Positions 4,722 to 40,064 of a DNA stretch of 64,000 bases are shown in pieces. The notes beneath the pieces are model-generated. The model did not search any database. It saw nothing but the letters and a program-made list of their open reading frames with translations, and was not told where the DNA came from. Both the position numbers and the translations under genes were made by a program. Position 1 is the first letter of the stretch. Every line of letters begins with the position of its first letter. The stretch comes from Nemertoderma westbladi (taxonomy: Eukaryota; Animalia; Xenacoelomorpha), in contig JAUCBJ010007125.1 of the NCBI GenBank assembly GCA_032718475.1, positions 33,016 to 97,015 of the forward strand, given 5' to 3'.

Positions 4722-4975
4722 CGATAAAACAATAAATGGTAATTATACCCATTCTTACTTAAATCCCCGATAAGACAATAAATGGTAATTATACCCATTC
4801 TTACTTAAATCCCCGATAAGACAATAAATGGTAATTATACCCATTCTTACTGAAATCCCCGATAAGACAATAAATGGTAATTATACCCATTCTTACTGAA
4901 ATCCCCGATAAGACAATAAATGGTAATTATAACACATTACTGAAATCCTCGATAAGACAATAAATGGTAATTATA
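4722..4975 (+). repeat. 46-bp satellite, left arm
   Basis: Unit GATAAGACAATAAATGGTAATTATACCCATTCTTACTGAAATCCCC. The same array resumes at 21099. Confidence 0.95.
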
Positions 4976-5765
4976 CACTGAAAAAAGTAACCAGTAGTTT
5001 TTTTTTAAAAACCACTGGTTCGAAAAACTACCACTGGTAGTTTTTGTAACAAATAAACCAACGGTTTTTTGGCTTAACCGGCAGTAGAAATTGAGCAATA
5101 TAACTGGCGGTTTCAACAACATCAAAATACCATGGGTTTTTAATACCGGTGGTTTATTAAACCAACAGTTTGAATTTTAAACAAACTGTCGGTTTTAAAG
5201 TCGCATCCTTCAAAATCAACCATGGGTCAACCAAGCGATTCTCATACACAAAAAGAATGCGGATATTGCGAAACTCGCGGAATACGAAGCCGCACTTATA
5301 GAACGAGATATTCAACTATACGAGGACTGGGAAAGGGATATAGATCAGGAATATGAACCAATACCGGTACCGGAATTAGAAAAGTCATTAATGACACTGG
5401 CGGTGAAACCCCCAAAACCCGAGTTCCCGCCTACCATACAGTCTACGTTATCGGCACAGGCCCCGGTGTTCCATCCCCACTGGTTACACTTAAAAATGAG
5501 GAACCGTATTTCCCATCCAACCCCACAGCAACGAGTGTACCCAAGTACGAGCCTGAAAGGGACTCGGAACGGGATGCCACTCCTCGATCCAACAACCCGT
5601 TTACGTCCACATCACAAAGCCGTAGCCGCGTCATCATTAAAACTCCACCTATCATCGATCCATCGTGTATGGGAGAGAGTGCCGATAATTATAACCCTCC
5701 TATCGGTGGTTTTTTTGAAAACCGGTGGTTTTTTTTTAAACAACCGTCGGTTCGTTTTTTCAGTG
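4976..5765. mobile_element. TA-flanked CACTG...CAGTG non-autonomous DNA element (CMC/EnSpm-like ends) enclosing a BEL gag fragment
   Basis: TA|CACTGAAAAAA at 4976 and TTTTTTCAGTG|TA at 5765. Imperfect extended TIRs with ACCACYGGT subterminal motifs. Confidence 0.7.
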
Positions 5766-5823
5766 TAGTCATTCCGGTTCAGACGACGTTGGTATCATCC
5801 GGGCATTAGAGAACCGACTGGCC

Positions 5824-8800
5824 ATGCCCAAGATGGAGATCCGCACCTTCGAAGGAGATCCCGTCGATTACCTCAGATTCAAGAAACGGTTCTTTGCGCA
5901 GATTGGATCAACGGACATAGCCGAAGCACAGAAACTGGTATATTTATCGCAATACCTGGGTGACAAACCATGCCGAATTATCGCATGCTTTGAAGGAGGA
6001 GCTCATGAAGCATACTATGACGCATGGAAGACTCTAGATAAAAGATACGGAAATATCGGGACTATAATTAATAAAACCCTCGAGAAACTGATCCAGGACG
6101 CGGGATCCCTAGGGGACCCACAGAATATCCAAGATTTCTCGGACTCGATGAAGGATGCCTACTACACTCTGAAACCATTAAATAAGGAGGAACAAGTGAA
6201 CAACATTCTAAACCTCCGACAGATCGCCCGGAAATTCCCCGGATGGCTACAAAGTAAGTGGGCGTATAAATGCGTAGATCTCCGGCGCAGACACCCAGAT
6301 CGAGATCCCAGCTTCCTCGAAATGTCAGCATTCCTGGATGATATCTCTGAAGCCATGAATGACTCGATGTTTTCAAAACAGAGTCTCGCCAAGTTGGACG
6401 GAATAGAGAGCAACTCCAGGAGTAAGATACCCCCGCCGAAACCGAGATTCCGCCCCCCACCGGTGAGTACGATGGCCATTACCATGGCCGAGGATTCCGA
6501 CGACGAAGACTACGAGGAACCGACATCCGCCGAGGAATGGGCGTGTTACCTTGCGAATTGGGCACCCGAGAGGGAAGGCATCACAAACTCCCTCCTCTGT
6601 CTCTTCTGTGGAGAGAAACATAAAGTGGAATTCTGCAGGAAGTTCCAGTTCGCCGAACTCGTCCCACGCTTCGAGGCGATAATGAAACACCGAGGATGCT
6701 TCCGGTGTCTTGGAACGGGTCACTATGTTCGGGATTGCGACCAAAGATCGTGCTGTGCAGTCTGTAACGACCTACGTCATCACACGCTCCTCCACATCCC
6801 CGCAAACTTCGATTTCACTACCCTCCCCTTTCGGATCGAAGCCAAGCGAAGAGGAGAAACGAACCACGTCTTCAAAGGAACCCGGACAACCCAACGGAGA
6901 GAAACCAACCCGTTTAAAATCTCCACCGATACACCACAAGTAACAAATATTTCAGCCACGATTAATCTTATAAATCGCCGCTACATGGTCTTCGCAAAGG
7001 TAATCCCAGTAAGGATTCAAGGAGTCGGCAAATCCCTGACGACGCTCGCGTTCCTTGATAACGGGTCTGACGGAACCATCATCAACCGGGATTTCCTCGA
7101 GCAACTCGGCCTAGAATATGAACCTTGTAAACGGCCCATACAAACCATCACCGATAACAGAGAGGTAGAGTCCGGGGATGTGCAACTCCAGATGGAAGGA
7201 GTAATGAAGGGCTACGAAACGGTTAAGCTAACCATCAAGAACGCCTTGGTACACACAGACCTCCGAGTGCGGTTCCGACAATCAGCCGAGTACGCCCCCC
7301 TCATGCAATTGGACCGAGACGATGTAGATCTGAGGTGTCCGCAGTTGGACGTAAACCGCATCACCCTACTGATCGGACTTGATACACCCTAACTACACAT
7401 CCCCACCGGAGATATCGCCCAATCTATAAAACAGGATGACGGATTTTATGCTGAACGAACAATAATGGGATGGACACTCTGCGGCATTAAGGAAGAAACT
7501 ACTGACACCTATACCTACCTTCCCAAATGTCAGATTAAAGAGAATGCAACCTCCGTGGGTTATTGCTCAGCTACGGACCTTGTCGGGGATTTGTTTCTGG
7601 AGACCGAGAAAACCCAACAAGAGATGATGAAATATTTTAATCTAGAGACCCAGGAGTTCGCTGAAAAGGACGAAAACCCGTCCGAAGAGGATCAATATTG
7701 TATGGACGTTCTCGACCAGGCCACGTTCAAAGACGGACACTGGTGTTCACCTATGCTATGGAAGGACCCAAACAAACCAATGGCAAACAACGCCAGCATG
7801 GCACTTAGGCGACTTAAGGGGATTCTATGCCGGCTGAATGACCAACCCGAGATAAAGGAGAAATATAATACCGTAATCCAAGGATATCTCGACGATGGAT
7901 TAGCAGAGATGGTACCACGGAATGAACTGCAAGGTGATAAAAGAACATATTATCTCCCAACCCACTATGTGGTAGAAGCCCGGAAGGGTGGGAAAATCCG
8001 AGTGGTAAATGATGCCGCCGCTATGTACCAGGGCGAATCCCTAAACAGTCAGCTTTACACGGGACCCAACATATATAGTACACTCATCGGCGTATTGATC
8101 AGGTTCAGGGAAAACCGGGTAGCATTCACCTGCGACATCAAGGCCATGTTTCATCAAGTTCGTACGCTACCAAGAGACTCAGACTGTCTACGTATCCTAT
8201 GGACGGATAAAACACTAACTCAACAGGAGATTAGTCAACTTACGATAAAGGACGTAGACATAATGCGTATGGTCGTCAGGATCTTCGGCGCTAAAGACTC
8301 GCCGGTAGCATGCAGTGACATGCTAAAGAGAACGGCGACTATGTGCAAAAACGAGTTCCCTCCAACTGTCATAGAAACCATCCGACGATGCTTTTACGTG
8401 GACGATGGATGCGCCGGCGCAGATAATGTGGACGACGCATATCAGCTAGCAATGGGGATGGTAGAATGTCTAAAGAAAGGAGGTTTTCCGCTCGTGAAGT
8501 TCAGATCCCACGACAAAACACTTATGGAAAAGTTTCCGGAGGACATCCGACTGGAAAATAACAAAATGTATTCGGAGGATGTGGAACACCGTGTACTCGG
8601 GATTGAATGGGACATAGAATCAGACGAATTCATTTTCAAATATAAACCCCTACCCACCCAAGCCTATGACAAAAAGGGGATGTTTGTCAATAAAAAGCGC
8701 CATCTTCGACCCACTAAATTTCATATGTCCAGTAACCTTGGCCGGAATGAACCTGATTAAGGAAATGTGGATAGAAGGACTGGGATGGGACAAAGAACTC

Positions 8801-11103
8801 CCCCCACACCTCAGCGTCAAATGGAGAAAATGGACGGAGCAGCTCGAACACCTACATCTTATGCGGATACCTCGACCGTTCTTCCTCGATAAACTACCCA
8901 CCGATATCTTCCAGCTCCATACCTTCTCGGATGCTTCGAATACCGGAATTGGCGTAGTCACCTTCTTACGAAGACTCAGCAATGATGGAAACGGCGATAC
9001 GAGCTTCTTATTTTCTAAAGCTAAGACAGTATCCGGGGAATTCGTAGCAACGATTCCAAGACTCGAGCTACAGGCTGCAGTTTGGGCAGTAAGACAGAAT
9101 TGCATGGTCATGCGGAACCTATGAATCCCCATCGAGTCTTAACACTTCTGGGTCGATTCGAGTATAGTTCTCTATTATCTCCACTCTCCATCACGGCGTC
9201 ACACTACGTTTGTTGCGAACCGAGCCACGGAGATTAAACAGTGTACCGGCCGAGAACAGTGGCACCACGTGAACAGGAAGAAAATCCAGTGGACTTATCA
9301 AGCCGAGGCGCCACCCCAAAACAACTCGGTAAAAGCAAACTCTGGCTTACAGGCCCGGAATTCCTACAGCAGCCACAATTAACATGGAGTACCCGATTCG
9401 ACCCCGAACTCAATAGCGGAAAATACTCCGAGGACGATAAAGAGATCTGTAAAGTCCATAGAAGCAACACAGTGGAAATTTATAGTTGTCTGACTGAGCC
9501 TGCAAAGGACTCGGGCAGGCACTATAACGTTGCGACGATCATTCAACCAGCGGCGTCTTTACATCTGTTGATCGAGCGAACCTCATCAATGAGACGGCTC
9601 ATCCACCACATTATAACCCTTCGCAACTTCCTACGGTGGAAAGACAACAAGCCGATAGTTCAACGGAGTATACAAGAACTCATTATCGCAGAGAAGTGTA
9701 TCATTGGATATGTCCAGAGAGAAAGTTTCCCCGATGAGTAGGAGCAACTCAGTGCGGGCAAGACCTTGAAACCGGATAGCCCAGTCTACCAACTGAGACC
9801 AATGATGGGAGAGGACGGACTGATCCGACTGAATACCCAGATGGCAAACGCCCCGGTCGAATATGAGGTTAAATACCCGGCGCTTCTGCCCGGAACTTCG
9901 ACACTAGCCAAGCTATTAATTCAACAATGTCACGAGGAAAACCATCACGCAGGACAAAACTGGATTATAGCTAATATAAGACAAAGATATTGGATCACAC
10001 ACATCCAGCCACTGATCCGGAAAGTGTTGAAACGTTGCTTTACCTGCAGAAGATATCTAGCGCCACCACTCACACAAAAGATGGCCGACTTACCAGCCAC
10101 CCGTCTACAGCCCGATTCCCCACCGTTCTACGTCACCGGAGTGGACTGTTTCAGACCGTTTACGGTCATCGAACGACGATCCAACATCAAATGCTGGGGG
10201 GCCATATTTACGTGCCTTAGGTCTAGGGCAATCTACCTAGACATTGTGGTGAACCTTACGCAACACGCATTCATCAACGCTCTGCGTCGGTTCGTGGCAA
10301 GCAATGGGACATGTCGTCACATGTATTCCGATAACGGCACAAACTTTGTGGGAGGAGAAAGAGAACTTAGAGAGGCGATCGAGGGATGGTTTACCGATAA
10401 CACGGCATCCCAAGTCTGGAAGGAACACCAGATACAGTGGCACTTCCAGACCCCCTTAGCACCCCATACGAGCGGGGTATGGGAGAAACTGATCGACCTA
10501 GTGAAACGATCCATGCGCGTCGCTCTAGGAGACACCCGGGTAACCCATGACACCCTCCGCACAACATTCTGCGAGATCACGGCTACCCTGAACAACCGAC
10601 CCATTGTCCCTATCCGCGACGACCCCACAGACCTGGAGCCCCTTACTCCTAATCACCTACTGGGGAGACCTAAAACTCATGTTCTCCCGGAGACAATGTT
10701 TCCGGATCCCAACGATATTGCGAGACATACAAACTGGAAGAAGGCCCAAGCATTGGCAGCGCACTGGTGGAGAATCTGGGCCCAGGAGTACCTCATAACC
10801 CTCCGGACCAGGAGGAAGTGGAACAACACCTACAGGAATGTCGAAGTTGGCGACATGGTACTAGTAAAAGAAGACCTTAAAGACCGCGTCCACTGGCCTG
10901 TGGCGCGAGTTGTGACAATACATCCGAGTAAAGATGGACTTGCGAGGACTGTGACGATACGAACGGCAAAGGGCCACTACCAACGCCCTATCCAGAGGCT
11001 GTGCCTTCTTGAAGGCAATGACAGTGGTGATTCTACGAGAGGTGATAAGTTCCCTACTAAAGATCCTGCTGCAGACATTGGTGACAATTACAAATGCGTT
11101 TAA
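5824..11103 (+). pseudogene. BEL/Pao gag-pol polyprotein, disrupted by stops (7390, 9122, 9739) and frameshifts (about 8660 and 9240)
   Basis: Gag PKMEIRTFEGDP..Y..F; zinc knuckles CLFCGEKHKVEFC, CFRCLGTGHYVRDC, CAVCNDLRHHTLLH; protease FLDNGS; RT DIKAMFHQV and YVDD; RNase H FSDAS and TIPRLELQAA; integrase HHCC, GVDC, SDNGTNF, GVWE; C-terminal W..EYL. Confidence 0.95.
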
Positions 11104-12339
11104 ACCCTTCTCATCATGTTGACAAACTTTTTTAAACTGTGATTTATCGACAATGAAAATGGACCCCCCTTAAACCAACTGTAACCACGCAATGGTATTT
11201 GTGTTTCCTCGTGTGTTATGTGGAGTCCAGCGTCACCCTGCAGATGTTTCGACTGACGCAGGATCGTTTATGTATTGTTTACCCTGATTTTGGTCATCGG
11301 GACCGACGATATTGGATTATTGGAAATGGAAAAGATTTGAAGTGGAATTCATTGTATTCATCGCAGTATGTTATGTTGTCCGTTGCGTGCGCAGTTCGGG
11401 GCGTAGGCGGTGTAACTAGTCCAGCTGTAGATCCCGGATTGCCGCGCAACACCCCCTCTATCCCGTTATTCTGGTGGGTCCATGGTGCATCCACGTGACT
11501 TCGACGATAGAGGGTTTTATGTTCTCAGTCGCGTTATTCTGGTGGGACCGTTGCGTGGATTTTGGGGCGTAGGCGGTGTAACTAGTCCAGCTGTAGATCC
11601 CAGAATGTTGCGTAACCCCATCCCACATGACTTCGTCGACTGAGCTTTATGTTGCTGGGAGTGTTATTCTGGTGGGTCCCTGGTGCATCCACGTGACTTC
11701 ACTTCCAGCGTCTTCATTGTCCGTTACGTGCGCAGTTTGGGGCGTAGGCGGTGTAACTAGCCCAGCTGTAGATCCCAGATTGCCGCGTAACACCCCTTCC
11801 ACGACAAAGATTTCCCAAAGAAGATGATTGAATGTAGTTGGAAATGATGAAAAGAATCAGACAACTCTACTATAAACCTGAATGATGACGCGTATGATGA
11901 TGAAAATGTAATGATGCGCACCCTGGTGCTGCGCTTATAACAAATGATGATAGCCGGGGGGCTATAACCCCAATGATGATGTGGAAATAAATGAAATGTG
12001 AAATAAATGGTGGAAATAAATGTGTTGAAATATGTTGAAATAAATGAAATGAGATGAAATAATAACGAGAAATGAAAAAAGACAAAAAAAAGGTATAAAA
12101 AAGTCTAAAGAAAAGAATTGGAAAAAAGAAAGGACATAAAAAGTCATAAAAAACTGGTTGGATATTAATGTATAGTTATAGTAACTGTAAATGCTGAATG
12201 TATTAGCAATAAGATGATAGATGCCTATATAGCAATGTTATTTAATAAACTGAACTGAATTATTCTGCAATCACTATAGTTTCAGACTTTCTGGACTTAT
12301 AATTAACTGATCTAATTTGTAACGGATATAATCGTAAAT

Positions 12340-14814
12340 ATGGACCCAAATCACCAAATTATCGGCGAATTACGTAACACGATAGATCTACTGGAATATT
12401 CGCAACCCGGATCCCCTGACTTTGATACAAATTGGAGCACCCTGCTAAATGAGAACGTGCGAGTCGTTAAATTCACCGGGCGAGAGGGACCGGATTCCAA
12501 GAATCTACGAGCCCTCCGGTTAGCCGATGCTAGTACGAGACTGAAAAGAACTCGGAACGCAAAGGCAACCAGAGGGGACGATTCGTCGTTTTGGGAAACG
12601 TTCCAGCAGAGCGTCTACAGATCCCAATGTTTGATCTACGACAACGAGGGAAACGCGACGCCCACCTCGAAAGCAATTACGTTGGCGAGATGTCAAAGTT
12701 TCGTCGACGACAAGAGTACGTACCTCGCCCACTGGGGAAACCTGTTGGAGTGTACGGCGACGCTTCGAGAGGAACGTATATCGACCATCCAAAATCGCGA
12801 CGACTACCAAGAAAAACACGGGGCGAAAGAATACGGTCGATCCTTGGTCGTCGTCCTCGGAACCCTGGACGGTTTGGTATTGGCGTGTCGAATATTTCCG
12901 ACACCCAGACAGGAAGTGCAGGCAGCCGGAGCGATCTGGTTGCTACCTTCGGAAATCCAAAAGATCCTCTTCGACTTCGACGTCATTAAAATCGGGTCGG
13001 ATATAAAGGCGGACGTCCGGAACGACTACGCGAACGCTCCTTCAGGAAGAAACCGACGAGATGACCTCAACGCCCTTAGCCATTGCGTCGACACTCAAAC
13101 GCTACTAGCCTGGTTACGATTCGCCGAGTTCATGCGAGGATTCCAAGAGGTGAGACCGACGAAATCCGGGATCGGCTACCTCGCTGTGCTAAATGGCGGC
13201 ATCAACTTCAAACCCCAGAAATTCCGGGACTATAATAAAATATATGGTGGATACCCGGGATTAGAAATAAAGAGCGAGCGAGAGGGTCGATGGAAGGATG
13301 TTGATCGGAAGTGGACGATACACCAAAGGTGGGAGAATCCCGATTGACGGAACTACGTCTACGTCGTTATGGAGTGCTACACTGTCGCTAAGTTTATCTG
13401 TAAAACTCTCGATAACCTTATTACGGCGGTTCCTCTTTCCTTCGTCGACTACGACTGGAACGAGGTTATAAACCACGTGTTCAAAGCGGTCGAGAACATC
13501 ACACTGGGAGAGACTAAAACGCTCGCTGTTATCGATTCCTGGGACGAGAGCGGACCTTACGACATCCCTACGATTACCGAACTTCTCGGTGCGGAGGAGC
13601 CTCTGATTTCTTCGGAAGGGGAAGAAATATGGCTAAATGAGGGTGTTCTACTCTCCACCCCGAAGCGACAACTCGAGCCGGAGGCCGCTTACTAACCGGC
13701 CGCCAAACGGGTTGCCTCCGCCGAACCAACGACGGAAGCGGGCGTTTCCTCACCACTCGGCTTCGGTAGCCCTGCGAGGGAGTTGGTTACTACCTTCGCG
13801 TTAAACGACTTCGGCGATATGTGCCAAAGGTTATCCCCGTATCCTTTCCCGGGTGGCGAAGACTGGTCGTCGGAGATTCCGAGTACCAGCAATCAACAGA
13901 CCCGCTCTGCGATATTGGTCGAGAAGGGCCTCAGCGCTGTGCTGACTCCCGACGATCTCCTCGGAATCCCTCCGTCGAAAACCCCGGCACCTCTTCGCCG
14001 ACCAGCGGTGGCTACTACACCCTCCGTTCCTCAGGATCCTATGCGACTAACCCGTTGGTACGCCGAGCAAACCGAATGGATCCATCGCCAGAAACGGTCG
14101 TCCGAGTTGAGACCGACGGGACACAAAGAAGGTTATCGTAGCGAGGACCTACTACGCAAAAGCCCAGCCTTCCGCAGGCTACCGACCACCGCGAATATTC
14201 AGAAGAGCGACCGACGACTCGAGTATCACGTCGGCGTCCCGATTCCGATATTCCCCGGTCGAGAGATGCAATTGGAGGTGTGCGGTGACTGTGGTTCGGA
14301 GCAGTGCCCACGCGGTAGAAGGAATCGGGTTACCGATTCGTGCCTCCAGCTCCTCGGGATACTCTATTGCCCATACTGCGCGACATCGGGCCACGACGTT
14401 TCCGTCTGCCCGATCCTATATAACCTCTGCACCACGTGCGGTTTCCGTGGACATTCCTCTAGCCCCCGCTGCTATATCAAATGTCCTACCAAAGACGTTA
14501 CCGCTATGGGAAATATGGTCATGTTTGAAACATACGCAAACAGCCACATGAAGACCAAGGTTCGGAGAAACGCTCGGAATATCGCGCAGGAGATGGCGTG
14601 CGGGTACTTCTCCTTCCCGGAACGCCTCCACACGTCGGCCACGCTGCCTTTCCATTACGTGGATTTGTTGCTGAGCGTCGGATTATTCGGCCCATTCGAA
14701 GTCATTAGACGCTTATACTCGTATAAAGAGGAGTTCGGTGACGGAGAGTGGTTCCTCGAGGTTCGCAACTCCGAGTTGGAACGACGAACCGATATGATCC
14801 CTGATCTGATCTGA
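12340..14814 (+). pseudogene. Extra ORF (ORF3) copy 1: DEDDy exonuclease-like plus CCHC; two in-frame stops, C-terminus cut by the duplication junction
   Basis: ORFs at 12340, 13369 and 13783 share one frame. The stops at 13345 (TGA) and 13693 (TAA) are CGA and CAA in copy 2. Confidence 0.75.
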
Positions 14815-14830
14815 TCCCGATGATTTTTAT

Positions 14831-17800
14831 AACTTTGTGGGAGGAGAAAGAGAACTTAGAGAGGCGATCGAGGGATGGTTTACCGATAACACCGCATCCC
14901 AAGTCTGGAAGGAACACCAGATACAGTGGCACTTCCAGACCCCCTTAGCACCCCATACGAGCGGGGTATAGGAGAAACTGATCGACCTAGTGAAACGATC
15001 CATGCGCGTCGCTCTAGGAGACACCCGGGTAACCCATGACACCCTCCGCACAACATTCTGCGAGATCACGGCTACCCTGAACAACCGACCCATTGTCCCT
15101 ATCCGCGACGACCCCACAGACCTGGAGCCCCTTACTCCTAATCACCTACTGGGGAGACCTAAAACTCATGTTCTCCCGGCGACAATGTTTCCGGATCCCA
15201 ACGATATTGCGAGACATACAAACTGGAAGAAGGCCCAAGCATTGGCAGCAGACTGGTGGAGAATCTGGGCCCAGGAGTACCTCATAACCCTCCGGACCAG
15301 GAGGAAGTGGAACAACACCTACAGGAATGTCGAAGTTGGCGACATGGTACTAGTAAAAGAAGACCTTAAAGACCGCGTCCACTGGCCTGTGGCGCGAGTT
15401 GTGACAATACATCCGAGTAAAGACGGACTTGCGAGGACTGTGACGATACGAACGGCAAAGGGCCACTACCAACGCCCTATCCAGAGGCTGTGCCTTCTTG
15501 AAGGCAATGACAGTGGTGATTCTACGAGAGGTGATAAGTTCCCTACTAAAGATCCTGCTGCAGACATTGGTGACAATTACAAATGCGTTTAAACCCTTCT
15601 CATCATGTTGACAAACTCTTTTAAACTGTGATTTATCGACAATGAAAATGGACCCCCCTTAAACCAACTGTAACCACGCAATGGTATTTGTGTTTCCTCG
15701 TGTGTTATGTGGAGTCCAGCGTCACCCTGCAGATGTTTCGACTGACGCAGGATCGTTTATGTATTGTTTACCCTGATTTTGGTCATCGGGACCGACGATA
15801 TTGGATTATTGGAAATGGAAAAGATTTGAAGTGGAATTCATTGTATTCATCGCAGTATGTTATGTTGTCCGTTGCGTGCGCAGTTCGGGGCGTAGGCGGT
15901 GTAACTAGTCCAGCTGTAGATCCCGGATTGCCGCGCAACACCCCCTCTATCCCGTTATTCTGGTGGGTCCATGGTGCATCCACGTGACTTCGACGATAGA
16001 GGGTTTTATGTTCTCAGTCGCGTTATTCTGGTGGGACCGTTGCGTGGATTTTGGGGCGTAGGCGGTGTAACTAGTCCAGCTGTAGATCCCAGAATGTTGC
16101 GTAACCCCATCCCACATGACTTCGTCGACTGAGCTTTATGTTGCTGGGAGTGTTATTCTGGTGGGTCCCTGGTGCATCCACGTGACTTCACTTCCAGCGT
16201 CTTCATTGTCCGTTACGTGCGCAGTTTGGGGCGTAGGCGGTGTAACTAGCCCAGCTGTAGATCCCAGATTGCCGCGTAACACCCCTTCCACGACAAAGAT
16301 TTCCCAAAGAAGATGATTGAATGTAGTTGGAAATGATGAAAAGAATCAGACAACTCTACTATAAACCTGAATGATGACGCGTATGATGATGAAAATGTAA
16401 TGATGCGCACCCTGGTGCTGCGCTTATAACAAATGATGATAGCCGGGGGGCTATAACCCCAATGATGATGTGGAAATAAATGAAATGTGAAATAAATGGT
16501 GGAAATAAATGTGTTGAAATATGTTGAAATAAATGAAATGAGATGAAATAATAACGAGAAATGAAAAAAGACAAAAAAAAAGGTATAAAAAAGTCTAAAG
16601 AAAAGAATTGGAAAAAAGAAAGGACATAAAAAGTCATAAAAAACTGGTTGGATATTAATGTATAGTTATAGTAACTGTAAATGCTGAATGTATTAGCAAT
16701 AAGATGATAGATGCCTATATAGCAATGTTATTTAATAAACTGAACTGAATTATTCTGCAATCACTATAGTTTCAGACTTTCTGGACTTATAATTAACTGA
16801 TCTAATTTGTAACGGATATAATCGTAAATATGGACCCAAATCGCCAAATTATCGGCGAATTACGTAACACGATAGATCTACTGGAATATTCGCAACCCGG
16901 ATCCCCTGACTTTGATACAAATTGGAGCACCCTGCTAAATGAGAACGTGCGAGTCGTTAAATTCACCGGGCGAGAGGGACCGGATTCCAAGAATCTACGA
17001 GCCCTCCGGTTAGCCGATGCTAGTACGAGACTGAAAAGAACTCGGAACGCAAAGGCAACCGGAGGGGACGATTCGTCGTTTTGGGAAACGTTCCAGCAGA
17101 GCGTCTACAGATCCCGATGTTTGATCTACGACAACGAGGGAAACGCGACGCCCACCTCGAAAGCGATTACGTTGGCGAGATGTCAAAGTTTCGTCGACGA
17201 CAAGAGTACGTACCTCGCCCACTGGGGAAACCTGTCGGAGTGTACGGCGACGCTTCGAGAGGAACGTATATCGACCATCCAAAATCGCGACGACTACCAA
17301 GAAAAACACGGGGCGAAAGAATACGGTCGATCCTTGGTCGTCGTCCTCGGAACCCTGGACGGTTTGGTATTGGTGTGTCGAATATTTCCGACACCCAGAC
17401 AGGAAGTGCAGGCAGCCGGAGCGATCTGGTTGCTACCTCCGGAAATCCAAAAGATCCTCTTCGACTTCGACGTCATTAAAATCGGGTCGGATATAAAGGC
17501 GGACGTCCGGAACGACTACGCGAACGCTCCTTCAGGAAGAAACCGACAAGACGACCTCAACGCCCTTAGCCATTGCATCGACACTCAAACGCTACTAGCC
17601 TGGTTACGATTCGCCGAGTTCATGCGAGGATTCCAAGAGGTGAGACCGACGAAATCCGGGATCGGCTACCTCGCTGTGCTAAACGGTAGCATCAACTTCA
17701 AACCCCAGAAATTCCGGGACTATAATAAAATATATGGTGGATACCCGGGATTAGAAATAAAGAGCGAGCGAGAGGGTCGATGGAAGGACGTTGATCGGAA

Positions 17801-19290
17801 GTGGACGATACACCAAAGGTGGGAGAATCCCGATCGACGGAACTACGTCTACGTTGTTATGGAGTGCTACACTGTCGCTAAGTTTATCTGTAAAACTCTC
17901 GATAACCTTATTACGGCGGTTCCTCTTTCCTTCGTCGACTACGACTGGAACGAGGTTATAAACCATGCGTTCAAAGCGGTTGAGAACATCACACCGGGAG
18001 AGACTAAAACGCTCGCTGTTATCGATTCCTGGGACGAGAGCGGACCTTACGACATCCCTACGATTACCGAACTTCTCGGTGCGGAGGAGCCTCTGATTTC
18101 TTCGGAAGGGGAAGAAATATGGCTAAATGAGGGTGTTCTACTCTCCACCCCGAAGCGATAACTCGAGCCGGAGGCCGCTTACCAACCGGCCACCAAACGG
18201 GTTGCCTCCGCCGAACCAACTACGGAAGCGGGCGTTTCCTCACCACTCGGCTTCGGTAGCCCTGCGAGGGAGTTGGTTACTACCTTCGCATTAAACGACT
18301 TCGGCGATACGTGCCAAAGGTTATCCCCGTATCCTTTCCCGGGTGGCGAAGACTGGTCGTCGGAGATTCCGAGTACCAGCAATCAACGGACCCGCTCTGC
18401 GATATTGGTCGAGAAGGGCCTCAGCGCTGCGCCGACTCCCGACGATCTCCTCGGAATCCCTCTGTCGAAAACCCCGGCACCTCTTCGCCGACCAGCGGTG
18501 GCTACTACACCCTCCGTTCCTCAGGATCCTATGCGACTAACCCGTTGGTACGCCGAGCAAACCGAATGGATCCACCGCCAGAAACGGTCGTCCGAGTTGA
18601 GACCGACGGGACACAAAGAAGGTTATCGTAGCGAGGACCTACTACGCAAAAGCCCAGCCTTCCGCGGGCTACCAACCACCACGAATATTCAGAAGAGCGA
18701 CCGACGACTCGAGTATCAAGTCGGCGTCCCGATTCCGATATTCCCCGGTCGAGAGATGCAATTGGAGGTGTGCGGTGACTGTGGTTCGGAGCAGTGCCCA
18801 CGCGGTAGAAGGAATCGGGTTACCGATTCGTGCCTCCAGCTCCTCGGGATACTCTATTGCCCATACTGCGCGACATCGGGCCGCGACGTTTCCGTCTGCC
18901 CGATCCTATATAACCTCTGCACCACGTGCGGTTTCCGTGGATATTCCTCTAGCCCCCGCTGCTATATCAAATGTCCTACCAAAGACGTTACCGCTATGGG
19001 AAATATGGTCATGTTTGAAACATACGCAAACAGCCACATAAAGACCAAGGTTCGGAGAAACGCTCGGAATATCGCGCAGGAGATGGCGTGCGGGTACTTC
19101 TCCTTCCCGGAACGCCTCCACACGTCGGCCACGCTGCCTTTCCATTACGTGGATTTGTTGCTGAGCGCCGGATTATTCGGCCCATTCGAAGTCATTAGAC
19201 GCTTATACTCGTATAAAGAGGAGTTCGGTGACGGAGAGTGGTTCCTCGAGGCTCGCAACTCCGAGTTGGAACGACGAACCGATATGATCC
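14831..19290 (+). repeat. Tandem duplicate of 10342-14801 (integrase 3' half, spacer and ORF3); period 4489-4490 bp
   Basis: Near-identical ORFs offset by 4489/4490 (11103 vs 15592; 12340 vs 16830), differing by scattered transitions. Confidence 0.97.
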
Positions 19291-19430
19291 CGATGCCATC
19301 GAAAGGAAGAGCCGCCAGGAGACAAGCCAAAGCGTTGCTCACGATGGATGTTGACGCTCCTCTACCAGCTATAGCGATCGACGAGAGCCGACGGGCGAAG
19401 AGGCGAAAGGCGTATCAGAGAAAGAAATAG
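16830..19430 (+). pseudogene. Extra ORF (ORF3) copy 2, full length (866 codons, one premature stop): WRN/EXD-like DEDDy 3'-5' exonuclease plus CCHC zinc knuckles
   Basis: Single frame from 16830 to 19430, with TAA at 18159 (CAA in copy 1). ExoI-like LIYDNEG, ExoII-like LP.EIQKIL.D.DVIKIGSDIKAD, IDTQ, SGIGYLA and ExoIII-like W....RRNYVYVVME. CX2CX4HX4C knuckles (His intact in copy 1). Basic C-terminal tail. Confidence 0.72.
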
Positions 19431-19604
19431 TGGATCGGGATATTCCAGGAACATTTATCGAACATTTATTTTTATACATATATATATAAACTCTAGGCCA
19501 AATTAATTAAAACTATGCAATATTAAATTTGGGTTTTTTATATTGGGAATGACCTACGCAAACTCAATCTACCGACAGACTTCACTAAGGTCATTGGGGG
19601 GGAC

Positions 19605-21098
19605 TGTTCGCGGTATTTCAACTTTCCATAACGCGAGTTGAATATTTTTTGTATTGATTTAAAATGATTATTCCGATATTACTACTGGATGCGGGACCAT
19701 GGGTTTTGGGCACATTCTATAAACTGGGGGCGATTTATGGGCGAACTTTGGGGCGACTTACAGGGTACGGGACTAATTTCATGTTCATAAGGGCCAGGGG
19801 GGATGGAAAATTCAAGCAGTATTCAGGTTAGCCTGATTACTATTAGGCCCTGGCCAACTTCCTGCTGCCTGTAGAGGTGGATTTGGTAACGCGCCAGGCC
19901 TAAAGGACAAGGACTGCCCTTAGCGGTCCCTGGCCAACAGCAGTTATTACGAGCCTGAAAAGGACATCGGAACGCCAGCTGCTTGTGTCAGGGACTTGCG
20001 ACGGGAAACGACACGACAGACCCCTAGCCAAGCCGTACTGGTTCTCAATGATCGTTCCCTTCGGGGTTCGTGATGGGTGGGACGGACACGCAAAAGGGTC
20101 TACCGACTAACAGAGGAAGGGTTTGACGAGGACTGCCCTTAGCGGTCTCTGGTCAACAGCAGTTATTACGAGCCTGAAAAGGACATCGGAACGCCGGCTG
20201 CTTGTACCAGGGATTTGCGACGGGAACCGACGACAGACCCCTTAGCCAAGCCGTACTGGTTCTCGATGCTCGTTCCCTTCGGGGTTCGTGAGGGGTGGGA
20301 CGGACACGCGACGGGGTCGAAAGACAAAGGACTGGACTCTACTGGCCTACCGACTGTTCGGAGCAGTTTCTCGGCTGCCGAAGCGACTACGAGCCTGAAA
20401 GGGACTCGGAAAGCCTAGGTGGTTGGGTTTCTGCGATGAACCGACGGACCCCTAGCCAAGCCATACTGGTTCTCGATGATCGTTCCCTTCGGGGTTCGTG
20501 AGGGGTGGGACGGACACGCGAACGGGTCCACCAACACGACAGACTCCTAGCCAAGCCGTACTGGTTCTCGATGACCGATCCCTTCGGGGTTCGAGAGGGG
20601 TGGTACGGATACGCGACAGAGTCTACCGACTGGACCGACCCTTAGCCAAGCCGTGCTGGTTCTCGATGATCGATCCCTTCGGGGTTCGGGAGGGGTGGAA
20701 CGGACAAGCGACAGTGTCGACCGACACCGACACTACAGCATCAAGACTAGGACCGAGGGAAAATCTGGGGAACATTAGTTAGGCTAAAATCTGAGCGAAC
20801 AGTGGGTAATTAAATAATATACTGTAGGGATTTATATTGTCGTGTATAATTATTGTGAATATTTGGTGTATATTGATTTGGGGAAGCCCAAAATTATTCT
20901 CAATCAGGGTTCAGTGAGATTAACTACATTAAAGAATATATCCAACCAATGCAGCTTTTTCTCAACCGCAATCCTGCATCTAAGAAATTCCTCCTTCTCC
21001 ACAATCAATATCCGGTGACTGGCCGGGACTCCATGGTCTGTAAAGCCCCGCCTCCAGCATCGGCGTTTTTCCCCCCTGGTGTCGGGATAACGGCAACA
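19605..21098 (+). repeat. 3' LTR of the BEL element (about 1.49 kb) with internal repeats
   Basis: Preceded by the PPT GGGGGGGAC. Starts TGTT, ends AACA. TATAAA near 19718. The satellite resumes immediately after. Confidence 0.85.
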
Positions 21099-22205
21099 CC
21101 GATAAGACAATAAATGGTAATTATACCCATTCTTACTAAAATCCCCGATAAGACAATAAATGGTAATTATAACACATTACTGAAATCCCCGATAAGACAA
21201 TAAATGGTAATTATACCCATTCTTACTGAAATTCCCGATAAGACAATAAATGGTAATTATACCCATTCTTACTGAAACCCCGAGAAGACAATAAATGGTA
21301 ATTATACCCATTCTTACTGAAATCCCCGAGAAGACAATAAATGGTAATTATACCCATTCTTACTGAAATCCCCGATAAGACAATAAATGGTAATTATACC
21401 CATTACTGAAATCCCCGAGAAGACAATAAATGGTAATTATACCCATTCTTACTGAAATCCCCGAGAAGACAATAAATGGTAATTATACCCATTACTGAAA
21501 TCCCCGAGAAGACAATAAATGGTAATTATACCCATTCTTACTGAAATCCCCGATAAGACAATAAATGGTAATTATACCCATTCTTACTGAAATCCCCGAG
21601 AAGACAATAAATGGTAATTATACCCATTCTTACTGAAATCCCCGAGAAGACAATAAATGGTAATTATACCCATTCTTACTGAAATCCCCGAGAAGACAAT
21701 AAATGGTAATTATACCCATTCTTACTGAAATCCCCGATAAGACAATAAATGGTAATTATACCCATTACTGAAATCCCCGAGAACACAATAAATAATAATT
21801 AATTCTTACTGAAATCCCCGAGAAGACAATAAATGGTAATTATACCCATTCTTACTGAAATCCCCGAGAAGACAATAAATGGTAATTATACCCATTCTTA
21901 CTGAAATCCCCGAGAAGACAATAAATGGTAATTATACCCATTCTTACTGAAATCCCCGAGAAGACAATAAATAGTAATTATATCCATTACTGAAATCCCC
22001 GATAAGACAATAAATGGTAATTATACCCATTCTTACTGAAATCCCCGATAAGACAATAAATGGTAATTATAACACATTACTGAAATCCCCGATAAGACAA
22101 TAAATGGTAATTATGCCCATTACTGAAATCCCCAAGAAGACAATAAATGGTAATTATACCCATTCTTACTGAAATCCCCGATAAGACAATAAATGGTAAT
22201 TATAC
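21099..22205 (+). repeat. 46-bp satellite, right arm (about 24 units, some 43-bp variants)
   Basis: Same unit as 4722-4975. Confidence 0.95.
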
Positions 22206-22399
22206 CGCTACCACACTCACGTCTGCACCCAGGATCCCGCAAACACCAATAGTCAATACAGGTGGAAAATCTAGAAACAGCTGAACTAGGTGTAGTGTGT
22301 TTGGTGAGTAATACCACCCCGACACTACATTAATATTATTACTATTAATAATTAATTAATATATTAAATAGGTATTATTATTATTATTATTATTTTATT

Positions 22400-36226: not shown

Positions 36227-36865
36227 TTGGAGAAATCTCTTGGACAAGGTTTGAAGATAATGCTTCACCTACTCTGTCTGTTGACTGGGGTTGAGAACCC
36301 AGGCCCACCATACAACTGCGAGATAACCTTCAAACAACTCCTCTATAAACTCATCCGTCTCAAACCGACCACTGCAAACACAGCGCCGCTACTCCATCTA
36401 GCGGTGAACACTAACACCACCAATGTAGGCAAGTACCCAGTCTGCACCTTCCCGTGTGACAAGGTTGCGAGTTTACTTATCGAGTGCGGCGCCTCCGTGG
36501 AAGAGGTCGATCAGCTGGGTAACACGGCGCTGCACGTGGCTGCCGGCACGGCCTCTCCCGCCAACGAGCGGTGCTTCCGACTGCTGCTGAGGCACGGCGC
36601 CCATATCGATAGGATCAACCGGTACGAAGAGACGCCGATGTATACGTTGAGACAAGCCGCCAAGTATACTCGAAAGTGGACTCCGGAGTTCAACGTCGAG
36701 ATGAACCGACTCGCTTTCGGTTCCACGTCCCTTAAATGTCTGTCGGCGCGGGCCGTTCCGATGTCCGCGCTCGCCTATTTGGAACTCATTCCCAAGGATT
36801 TACACGAGTTTATTTGTTGGCATCGCAAGGTAGATAAAAAAAAGTACGAGGTTTTTTCGACCTAA
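36227..36865 (+). CDS. fem-1: fem-1 homolog, terminal exon (C-terminal ankyrin repeats and VHL-box-like motif)
   Basis: ttttag|TTG acceptor. Motifs PLLHLAV...VGKYPVCTFP, GNTALHVAA, LLLRHGAHID and SLKCLSARAV...IPKDLHEFI. TAA stop, with AATAAA about 10 nt downstream. Confidence 0.93.
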   Translation: MEKSLGQGLKIMLHLLCLLTGVENPGPPYNCEITFKQLLYKLIRLKPTTANTAPLLHLAVNTNTTNVGKYPVCTFPCDKVASLLIECGASVEEVDQLGNTALHVAAGTASPANERCFRLLLRHGAHIDRINRYEETPMYTLRQAAKYTRKWTPEFNVEMNRLAFGSTSLKCLSARAVPMSALAYLELIPKDLHEFICWHRKVDKKKYEVFST

Positions 36866-38461
36866 AGTTTCTGAAATAAATTTCACAATATTAACTGAAT
36901 CAATTTTTAATTAACTAACAACTCTACTCGGAATCTGATTATTATTATAGTTATTTTATTATTATTATTATTAATATTATTATTATTATTATTAGCACAA
37001 ATGTCGTAAATTTTTTAACATGTAGGTCGTAGGATGTTGAATTCGTTTTGCTATTTCCAATTTCTCCAAATCTCTTTAGAATTACCATCGTCGGTTTAGA
37101 TATAAATGTAGTTTATCATTGGATACGTCGTAAAGGTGTACGATAATCTACGGGAATAACTTAGTGGAAAGTTACATTTATAATTAACATCGAATCAATG
37201 ATTTCAGTTTTAAAACGTTCATAAATAAATTTGATTCAATTGATTGTCTCTTTCCTAGTTAATTTTCAATTAACCCCAATATAATTGTAATTATGTAATA
37301 TTATAATTTAATTGAATTATATATAATAATAATAATTTATCAGCCCTAAAAGTACAAAATGACGTAGCCTGGAGGCAGAGAGTATTCAAATGGAAAACGT
37401 AGAGCAAATTATTATTATTATTATTATTTATGCATGATGATATGCATTTGTAATGACTCCCCAACTCAGGTCTGGTTTCCGTAAAAATCTAATCAATAAT
37501 GTAAAATGATAGATTGCACTGATCTGCCTATTTGCAACGTTTTCCATGCAACAAAATCATGGAATGGTCTAAGTTAATAATTCCTTTTTTTTATAGTTTT
37601 ATAATGTTTAAATTTTTCGATGACACCTCCACAAAATTCAATGGAACCCAAAAGAAAATTGAAAATATTTACTAATTATCCAAAATGTATTCTTTCTTCT
37701 TTCTCTCCCTAAAACGAACTTTAGGTTGTAAACAAATAAAAGTGGCATTGTCTAACCGCAGCGGTTTAAGTCGATATTATTTAATGGGGGTTGTTTCATT
37801 CGAGAACGCGAAAAATGCGCTTCTGGTAAATATATTATACTTATGTACAAAGTATATCACTTTATATTATACAGAATTAGCAAATGTAACACTTGGACTA
37901 AAAAAGGGTAAATTTGTTTTCAAGGACTTGGTATATTCTTCATCAAAATATACTGACTACTTTTAAACTGTATTAATTAGATGCAGAATTTATACAGTTT
38001 TCAGATAGGCTATTAACCGTTACGACATCTTCATTATTAGTTGCGAGATAGAGTCCAAACCAACTCCAATTTATGCTGTGGAGATCGCAAAAACCACGTA
38101 TCTTTTAATTTAAAACTGCTGTGAAAACTTTCGAAATATAAGCAGGTATACAAATTTGGTACCAAAATACGCACTGAAAAAATTGGCTTTAAGAATATAT
38201 AGTTTGTCAAGGTGACAGATACTAAAAGAAGCAAAATTGTGGCCCAAAGTCGAACATAGACAGACATTGCCACTTTTTTGTGTTTTTGACTTTAGTTCAC
38301 GGTTTATCTCTTTAAATGTGATAATCTTAATTAACGTCAAGTTTTTTAAACATAAACAGAGTGTTATTTTCACCTTTTTATATTTTGAGCACCCAAAGTT
38401 GAACAAACGTTCATATATTAATTGGTAAAGGAATTAATTATCTGTCCTTAATAATATAGAA

Positions 38462-40064
38462 TAAATGGTTATGCCCACATACAGTACTGTAAGTTAAATG
38501 GTTATGCCCACTTACAGTACTGTAAGTTAAATGGTTATGCCCACATACAGTACTGTAAGTTAAATGGTTATGCCCACATACAGTACTGTAAGTTAAATGG
38601 TTATGCCCACATACAGTACTGTAAGTTAAATGGTTATGCCCACATACAGTACTGTAAGTTAAATGGTTATGCCCACATACAGTACTGTAAGTTAAATGGT
38701 TATGCCCACATACAGTACTGTAAGTTAAATGGTTATGCCCACATACAGTACTGTAAGTTAAATGGTTATGCCCACATACAGTACTGTAAGTTAAATGGTT
38801 ATGCCCACATACAGTACTGTAAGTTAAATGGTTATGCCCACATACAGTACTGTAAGTTAAATGGTTATGCCCACATACAGTACTGTAAGTTAAATGGTTA
38901 TGCCCACATACAGTACTGTAAGTTAAATGGTTATGCCCACATACAGTACTGTAAGTTAAATGGTTATGCCCACATACAGTACTGTAAGTTAAATGGTTAT
39001 GCCCACATACAGTACTGTAAGTTAAATGGTTATGCCCACATACAGTACTGTAAGTTAAATGGTTATGCCCACATACAGTACTGTAAGTTAAATGGTTATG
39101 CCCACATACAGTACTGTAAGTTAAATGGTTATGCCCACATACAGTACTGTAAGTTAAATGGTTATGAACACATACAGTACTGTAAGTTAAATGGTTATGC
39201 CCACATACAGTACTGTAAGTTAAATGGTTATGCCCACATACAGTACTGTAAGTTAAATGGTTATGCCCACATACAGTACTGTAAGTTAAATGGTTATGCC
39301 CACATACAGTACTGTAAGTTAAATGGTTATGCCCACATACAGTACTGTAAGTTAAATGGTTATGCCCACATACAGTACTGTAAGTTAAATGGTTATGCCC
39401 ACTTACAGTACTGTAAGTTAAATGGTTATGCCCACATACAGTACTGTAAGTTAAATGGTTATGCCCACATACAGTACTGTAAGTTAAATGGTTATGCCCA
39501 CTTACAGTACTGTAAGTTAAATGGTTATGCCCACATACAGTACTGTAAGTTAAATGGTTATGCCCACATACAGTACTGTAAGTTAAATGGTTATGCCCAC
39601 ATACAGTACTGTAAGTTAAATGGTTATGCCCACTTACAGTACTGTAAGTTAAATGGTTATGCCCACATACAGTACTGTAAGTTAAATGGTTATGCCCACA
39701 TACAGTACTGTAAGTTAAATGGTTATGCCCACATACAGTACTGTAAGTTAAATGGTTATGCCCACATACAGTACTGTAAGTTAAATGGTTATGCCCACAT
39801 ACAGTACTGTAAGTTAAATGAATAAATGGTTATGTCCACATACAGTACTGTAAGTTAAATGAATAAATGGTTATGTCCACATACAGTACTGTAAGTTAAA
39901 TGAATAAATGGTTATGCCCACATACAGTACTGTATGTTAAATGAATAAATGGTTATGTCCACATACAGTACTGTAAGTTAAATGAATAAATGGTTATGCC
40001 CACATACAGTACTGTAAGTTAAATGAATAAATGGTTATGCCCACATACAGTACTGTAAGTTAAA
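38462..40064. repeat. 33-bp satellite (40-bp variants at the 3' end), highly homogeneous
   Basis: Unit AAATGGTTATGCCCACATACAGTACTGTAAGTT, containing the palindrome TACAGTACTGTA. Confidence 0.97.

Follow-up and report, generated by a model that had tools for sequence, protein, structure and literature searches.

BEL/Pao retrotransposons are confined to metazoans (PMC8742986), and the genes described for them are gag, pol and sometimes env (PMC8742986; available sections of PMC3118150). Retroelements with an exonuclease gene are known from rotifers, where third open reading frames (ORF3s) of the Ty3/gypsy elements Juno and Vesta, and of Athena/Terminon elements, encode DEDDy proteins with a DEED motif, whose activity is not shown in the available text of the paper (Rodriguez et al., 2017; PMC5408684). 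Two reviews, in the sections available, repeat this report (PMC6431247, PMC6338049). A combination of exonuclease and zinc knuckles is described for RNase D of Trypanosoma brucei (TbRND), an active DEDD exoribonuclease whose C-terminal CCHC fingers bind single-stranded RNA for 3' trimming (available sections of PMC7797062). Here, we analyzed a stretch of 64,000 nucleotides from Nemertoderma westbladi (GenBank assembly GCA_032718475.1, contig JAUCBJ010007125.1, positions 33,016 to 97,015 of the forward strand), called the window throughout, in which a decayed long terminal repeat (LTR) retrotransposon, identified as BEL/Pao (Belpaoviridae) by its predicted domains, carries a third gene that we call ORF3. 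An original prediction for this DNA had proposed a DEDDy exonuclease with zinc knuckles in the env position of the element, and its two premises, that BEL elements usually carry gag and pol and sometimes env, and that captured DEDDy ORFs occur in Ty3/gypsy elements of bdelloid rotifers, agree with the papers cited above (PMC8742986; available text of PMC5408684).

As predicted, ORF3 lies between pol and the polypurine tract that precedes the likely 3' LTR, and it is present twice because the interval 10342-14801 is repeated at 14831-19291, a 4.5-kb tandem duplication with 98.9% identity. All features of the element are on the forward strand. In copy 1 (12340-14814), codons 336 and 452 are stops, and the duplication junction truncates the frame near codon 821. 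Copy 2 (16830-19430) runs from an ATG at 16830 to a TAG at 19428-19430 and comprises 866 codons; its single internal stop, at codon 444, was treated as X in protein analyses. At each of these three positions the other copy has a sense codon, so that an intact ancestor of 866 amino acids can indeed be reconstructed. In copy 2, a predicted DEDDy/DnaQ-like exonuclease domain (residues ~81-370; 17070-17939) is followed, after a linker of ~275 residues, by a Cys-rich knuckle module with a conserved C-terminal domain (18765-19289) and by a basic tail (19290-19427) with 14 Lys or Arg versus 4 Asp or Glu in 46 residues, possibly a nuclear localization signal. The tail is seen once because the duplication junction cuts copy 1 near codon 821, and this part of the original prediction holds for copy 2 and not for copy 1. 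Similarly, the motifs that had been quoted are present in ORF3, but VDTQ and both His-containing knuckles come from copy 1 and not from the coordinates of copy 2, which is without either knuckle His ligand, whereas copy 1 retains both.

A phmmer search with the N-terminal 443 residues against 1.84 billion representative proteins gave two matches at E ≤ 0.001, namely P0002 (648 amino acids, E = 2.7e-6) and P0003 (434 amino acids, E = 7.6e-4), both unnamed singletons from ENA, the former on a contig of 9.4 kb. P0002 also matches the C-terminal half of ORF3, which lay outside the phmmer query, over the knuckle module and C-terminal domain (BLASTP E = 1e-9, 29% over 140 amino acids), and therefore the two proteins have a common layout of N-terminal domain, long linker, Cys/His knuckles and conserved C-terminal block. 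The knuckles of P0002 match nucleocapsid structures (E ~1e-4); an origin of the ORF3 knuckles as a recent copy of the element's own gag knuckles was rejected (E = 0.24). In searches with the window ORF3, no significant match was obtained in Pfam, NCBIfam, PHROGs or PDB sequences. Word-index protein searches gave no new relatives beyond P0002, and in locus searches none was present in the viral contigs, metagenome contigs, prokaryote genomes and phages covered. A profile of the three sequences (ORF3, P0002, P0003) retrieved two chance matches from the PDB (E = 0.17 and 0.31). In a comparison of ESM Atlas features, the window domain was placed with PF01612 clusters (score 0.92, family on 42% of members, 164 shared features), and the top cluster for P0002 combined PF01612 with zf-CCHC (score 0.86), which we take as a lead only.

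The fold was modeled with AlphaFold for the domain of P0002, using an alignment of four rows (P0002, P0003 and two window stretches). The mean predicted local distance difference test score (pLDDT) of this model was 56, residues 11-100 being mostly at 70-88 and residues 124-234 below 50; a single-sequence model of the window domain, with a pLDDT of 32, was unusable. Foldseek comparison of the P0002 domain model with the PDB yielded 47 matches at E ≤ 0.001, and 43 of the 43 listed are DEDD-fold proteins. Among the matches listed, EXD2 came first (8.7e-6), followed by RICE1, Egalitarian, Exd1, trypanosome RNase D, Rrp6, NrnC, Nibbler and a Pol I. When the model was aligned to 48,161 chains with VIA-align, EXD2 again was best (Z = 8.1, 98 aligned residues at a root-mean-square deviation of 3.1) and the first 23 rows were all DnaQ-like. 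With few exceptions, the viral fold matches that carried a name were 3'-5' exonucleases or family-A polymerases. This result is not circular because the alignment contained no known nuclease. A DnaQ-like (RNase H-like) fold, carried over by homology from the P0002 model, is highly probable for the ORF3 domain; together with the Atlas placement of the window domain it agrees, transitively for ORF3 itself, with the fold that had been anticipated.

For the ExoI motif, an ungapped scan with the DxE context of the relatives picked D101-N-E103 with a score of 47, the next score being 11, and none of 2000 shuffles of the N-terminal region reached 47. A MAFFT placement of the relatives' DxE at residues ~141-145 was rejected, as those windows scored -20 or less compared to 47 for D101; MAFFT misplaces ExoI because the ORF3 protein has ~55 extra residues after it. 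The predicted catalytic residues are D101 (17130) and E103 (17136) in ExoI, D225 (17502) in ExoII, which aligns with Asp in P0002 and with Glu in P0003, and Y341 (17850) and E345 (17862) in ExoIII. The Glu for Asp in ExoIII, already pointed out in the original prediction, is found in all three proteins, which read Y-x3-E instead of the canonical Y-x3-D in a region of the model under pLDDT 50, and it is for this reason a family trait and not a sign of decay. At only 25-30% identity, the acidic residues at ExoI, ExoII and ExoIII are retained in ORF3, P0002 and P0003, which favors an active enzyme, and it seems fairly probable that D101, E103, D225 and E345 would form a two-metal site with nuclease activity. 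No env-like feature (signal peptide, membrane anchor or fusion-protein fold) was found in ORF3, for which a nuclease-type fold is predicted instead, in keeping with the earlier view that the gene is not env-like. Its most hydrophobic 19-residue window (2.08; residues 168-186) is the only borderline one for a membrane segment, and this assignment was rejected since the segment aligns with core beta-strands of the P0002 model.

The window stretch or part of it is represented in five of the seven listed sequencing runs, four of which share one organism label. Run X5, which is RNA by guess, comes from another organism and has a depth under 6, was left out of the evidence. For runs X1 and X3, summed contig depth, which according to a warning of the tool is no copy number, exceeded 10,000 in most bins between gag and the LTR and was ~30 or less for left-flank contigs, and the mean depth of the exonuclease region was 1.24 and 1.16 times that of gag-pol, respectively. 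As the depth of ORF3 is close to that of gag-pol, ORF3 travels with the family. One contig of run X4 spans the junction of spacer and ORF3 (16435-17530), and a 1916-nt X4 contig (matched by length and depth) with ~80-84% identity is nearly colinear over the exonuclease and knuckle regions; the listed indels in one contig sum to +3. At codon 452 of copy 1, most of the sequencing depth is without the stop. In the region 17070-17900, among the 40 best-supported of 106 variant rows, 27 of 39 variant sites are at the third codon position (p = 5e-6), 29 of 40 are synonymous, the ratio of non-synonymous to synonymous substitution rates (dN/dS, omega) is estimated at ~0.11-0.18, and none touches codons 101, 103, 225, 341 or 345. 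The family-wide depth and the synonymous bias therefore indicate an accessory gene and not a one-off capture: ORF3 is a family-wide accessory gene under purifying selection in a many-copy BEL/Pao family. The original prediction had regarded absence of the ORF from other family members and a dN/dS near 1 as points against its proposal, and on both counts the family data are in its favor. At the locus itself, the two copies differ at 12 synonymous, 25 non-synonymous and 3 stop-involving sites (omega 0.7-1.1), and 30 of the 47 substitutions across the whole duplication are at CpG; here, the ORF3 copies decay neutrally and the window copy is dead.

Integrase and ORF3 are separated by a non-coding spacer of ~1.2 kb (copy 1, 11104-12339; copy 2, 15593-16829), in which three related hairpin units of ~85 nt share an identical 20-nt core. 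The units are located at ~11376-11458, 11548-11630 and 11717-11799 in copy 1 and within 15865-16288 in copy 2, where the cores are at 15889, 16055 and 16230. Folding was compared to shuffled sequences, giving z = -3.0 for the first unit and z = -0.9 for the second, and the hairpins are candidates for a cis-acting RNA signal, as judged from sequence. They have no match at gathering level in Rfam, and over the whole element Rfam gave nothing at E ≤ 1, narrower scans returning chance-level matches to small nucleolar RNAs (snoRNAs) and microRNAs alone. Several ATGATGA C-box-like words occur at 11840-12000, where snoRNA-like Rfam scores are far under threshold (E = 0.27-7.1) and probably due to chance. 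In ORF3, 28 of 258 CpG sites differ between the tandem copies, compared to 0 of 51 for the spacer and 2 of 42 for pol, and the difference between ORF3 and spacer (Fisher p = 0.007) was spotted post hoc. This pattern may mean that the ORF body is methylated while the spacer, perhaps an internal promoter, is protected, or it may be due to gene conversion.

Our tentative interpretation is that ORF3 encodes a predicted DEDDy-fold 3'-5' exoribonuclease fused to CCHC knuckles, which would counter small-RNA silencing of the element. The protein would be expressed from a subgenomic RNA that is started or spliced in the 1.2-kb spacer and would enter the nucleus via its basic tail. As in trypanosome TbRND, an RNA strand would be gripped by the knuckles while the exonuclease degrades it from the 3' end. 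The targets would be small silencing RNAs or their precursors, whose trimming or destruction would blunt silencing of the element. An RNA trimmer that blunts silencing is favored because the closest animal folds include small-RNA trimmers and factors of the Piwi-interacting RNA (piRNA) pathway; what is shown is the location of the gene between integrase and polypurine tract, its presence throughout the family, the synonymous bias and a distant relative with both domains. Several points weigh against it. Pfam is without an exonuclease match for ORF3 and gives only E = 0.2 for P0002, and a VIA-align Z of 8.1 counts as middling according to the note that comes with the tool. In ExoIII, Glu takes the place of Asp, ~55 residues are inserted after ExoI when compared to both relatives, and the ExoIII half of the model is under pLDDT 50, which places the active-site geometry outside the reliable model. 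Several close fold neighbors are non-catalytic, as EXD1 is described as inactive (available text of PMC5408684) and Egalitarian was solved as an RNA adaptor. The selection test used the 40 best-supported of 106 rows, which are not independent events, and its omega is an estimate. Substrate, activity and expression of ORF3 are predictions, and a general silencing suppressor would presumably also benefit competing elements, weakening selection for the suppressor.

The same predicted catalytic and knuckle evidence would fit an active enzyme that works in cis inside the particle and trims replication RNAs of the element, such as the 3' end of the genomic RNA, the transfer RNA primer or RNase H leftovers. 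Nucleocapsid-like knuckles would favor joint packaging with the RNA of the element, selection acts readily on a benefit in cis, and 3'-end processing of element RNA was proposed for the rotifer DEDDy ORFs (available text of Rodriguez et al., PMC5408684). However, gag-pol alone suffices for the replication of most BEL/Pao elements (PMC8742986) and it is not obvious that the product of a separate ORF, with its basic tail, would be packaged. We consider trimming in cis rather unlikely in itself but close behind the preferred reading. The same holds for a role as RNA adaptor, comparable to that of Egalitarian or EXD1, in which a protein with weak or no nuclease activity would bind the three upstream hairpins and export or localize the genomic RNA. 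Egalitarian and Exd1 are among the fold neighbors, one Egalitarian structure holding the localization signal of the I-factor retrotransposon, and an LTR element with an export protein is described in Cer1 of C. elegans (available text of PMC10309623). The Glu in ExoIII and the three hairpin units with their identical core, the first of which folds better than shuffles, would suit such an adaptor, whereas the second unit folds no better than shuffles and retention of the ExoIII Tyr and of all four acidic positions at such low identity would be unusual for a dead enzyme.

Proofreading or trimming of complementary DNA for the reverse transcriptase of the element, comparable to ExoN in large nidovirus genomes, appears improbable. 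Polymerase proofreading domains and WRN are among the fold matches, and in nidoviruses the enlargement of genomes is linked to proofreading by ExoN (available text of PMC7968707), the present element being long for BEL/Pao, but RNases and RNA-binding proteins make up most of the top fold matches, single-stranded RNA is the usual ligand of CCHC knuckles, and ORF3 is not fused to pol. Finally, ORF3 might be a passive passenger without function that stems from a single capture of part of a host gene. The CpG observed/expected ratio of 1.37 in ORF3 versus 0.85-1.07 in gag-pol and the neutral divergence of the window copies leave some room for this explanation, but it is largely refuted and has very little probability left, given the family-wide depth, the strong synonymous bias among family variants, the colinearity of contigs ~80-84% identical with few or no gaps, and word-index and phmmer protein searches that returned no close host paralogue.

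A wider claim, more doubtful than the preferred reading, is that ORF3 is the first member of an undescribed, widespread family of retroelement exonuclease-knuckle suppressors of silencing by piRNAs or small interfering RNAs, to which P0002 and P0003 would also belong. In that case, a fold with which the host trims small RNAs would be used by a BEL/Pao element against the transposon defense of the host, possibly aimed by RNA hairpins of the element. To our knowledge, little is known about suppressors of small-RNA silencing encoded by animal transposons. With a high-copy family and one clear candidate enzyme, an enzymatic fight of animal LTR elements against piRNA silencing becomes testable.

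The remaining parts of the element are as follows. A gag-protease region with a disrupted 5' end (5740-7392) matches PF03564 (DUF1759; E = 7.7e-13) and PF13650 (aspartyl protease; E = 3.4e-5), gives a zinc knuckle match in Pfam as well, and contains three Cys-His knuckles. Pol (7393-11103), interrupted by stops and frameshifts, comprises reverse transcriptase, a Pao peptidase A17/RNase H region, integrase and DUF5641, with matches to PF05380 (Peptidase_A17; E = 4.1e-35), PF18701 (DUF5641; E = 7.9e-30) and PF17921 (integrase; E = 1.6e-9); the Pfam match of the reverse transcriptase is weak, and its YVDD motif is at 8395. The order gag, protease, reverse transcriptase, RNase H and integrase over 5740-11103 fits the BEL/Pao pol order with Peptidase_A17 and DUF5641, and the assignment to BEL/Pao was made because of the Pao-type Pfam domains, the three gag knuckles and YVDD. 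The second tandem unit starts with a duplicated 3' part of integrase/DUF5641 (14831-15592). Downstream of ORF3 copy 2, a polypurine tract of 8 purines (19596-19603) is followed by a segment of 1494 bp (19605-21098) with TGTT...AACA ends and internal tandem repeats, over which sequencing depth rises; from its ends and depth it is likely the 3' LTR, its partner being absent from the window. No 5' LTR was found within the 64-kb window, and the 5' end of this element copy is missing.

Within the likely LTR, nested repeats at 19906-20732 consist of a duplication of ~219 nt and units of ~95 nt, with fewer units in other copies, and a short motif of these repeats recurs at ~5547-5572, upstream of gag. 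A small DNA-transposon-like element (4977-5765), with CACTG-ended terminal inverted repeats (10 bp exact), surrounds a piece of the gag 5' region, and one other family copy joins 5700 straight to 5767. An identical 46-bp satellite is present at both ends of the truncated element (4722-4976 and 21099-22206), and further satellite arrays fill much of the window. Elsewhere, a tandem-repeat frame on the reverse strand (38438-39829) scores as many Kazal domains (E = 1.4e-34) and a frame on the forward strand (36227-36865) as ankyrin repeats (E = 4.6e-12).

Among known systems, the env-like third gene of some BEL/Pao elements occupies the same slot in the same gag-pol architecture, but the third gene is here a predicted nuclease and not a glycoprotein, and from gag to the end of the LTR the present element measures ~11 kb without the duplication, compared to 4.2-10 kb for whole elements (PMC8742986; available text of PMC3118150). 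Our literature searches, with Repbase, subscription journals and supplements outside their scope, found, among the papers listed, no BEL/Pao element with an exonuclease ORF or with such a knuckle fusion. A word count for 'exonuclease' gave 0 for the BEL/Pao survey PMC3118150 (main text), for PMC8220671 and for PMC7998251. The best structural neighbors of the P0002 model, and the Atlas leads, belong to the EXD2/WRN-exo/Mut-7-Nibbler/EXD1/Egalitarian group (PF01612), but identity to it is only ~10-22% and there is no hidden Markov model match at threshold, so that a donor subfamily within the group cannot be assigned. TbRND (PDB 7c42 and related structures), which is among the Foldseek matches to the P0002 model, likewise has a DEDD exonuclease followed by CCHC knuckles. 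It is, however, a cellular enzyme that trims guide RNAs in mitochondria and has a short linker and four knuckles (available text of PMC7797062), whereas in ORF3 the linker measures ~275 residues, and a further C-terminal domain and a basic tail are present; the likeness is probably convergent. Closest in kind are the rotifer ORF3s, which according to the available text of PMC5408684 also are separate third ORFs after pol in the env position, encode DEDDy-type 3'-5' exonucleases and lack a transmembrane segment. Their sequences did not turn up in phmmer or word-index protein searches with ORF3, and when compared by description, they differ in that no C-terminal CCHC-knuckle domain and no length of 866 amino acids is described for them in that text. 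Also, their motif is DEED, whereas the last position here is Glu, and the carrier here is BEL/Pao, for either word of which PMC5408684 has 0 whole-word matches. ORF3 is therefore new with respect to known DEDDy third ORFs in its LTR superfamily, its knuckle fusion and its Y-x3-E motif. DEDDy capture has thus recurred in a different LTR superfamily and with a different architecture, and repeated independent capture would suggest a real advantage.

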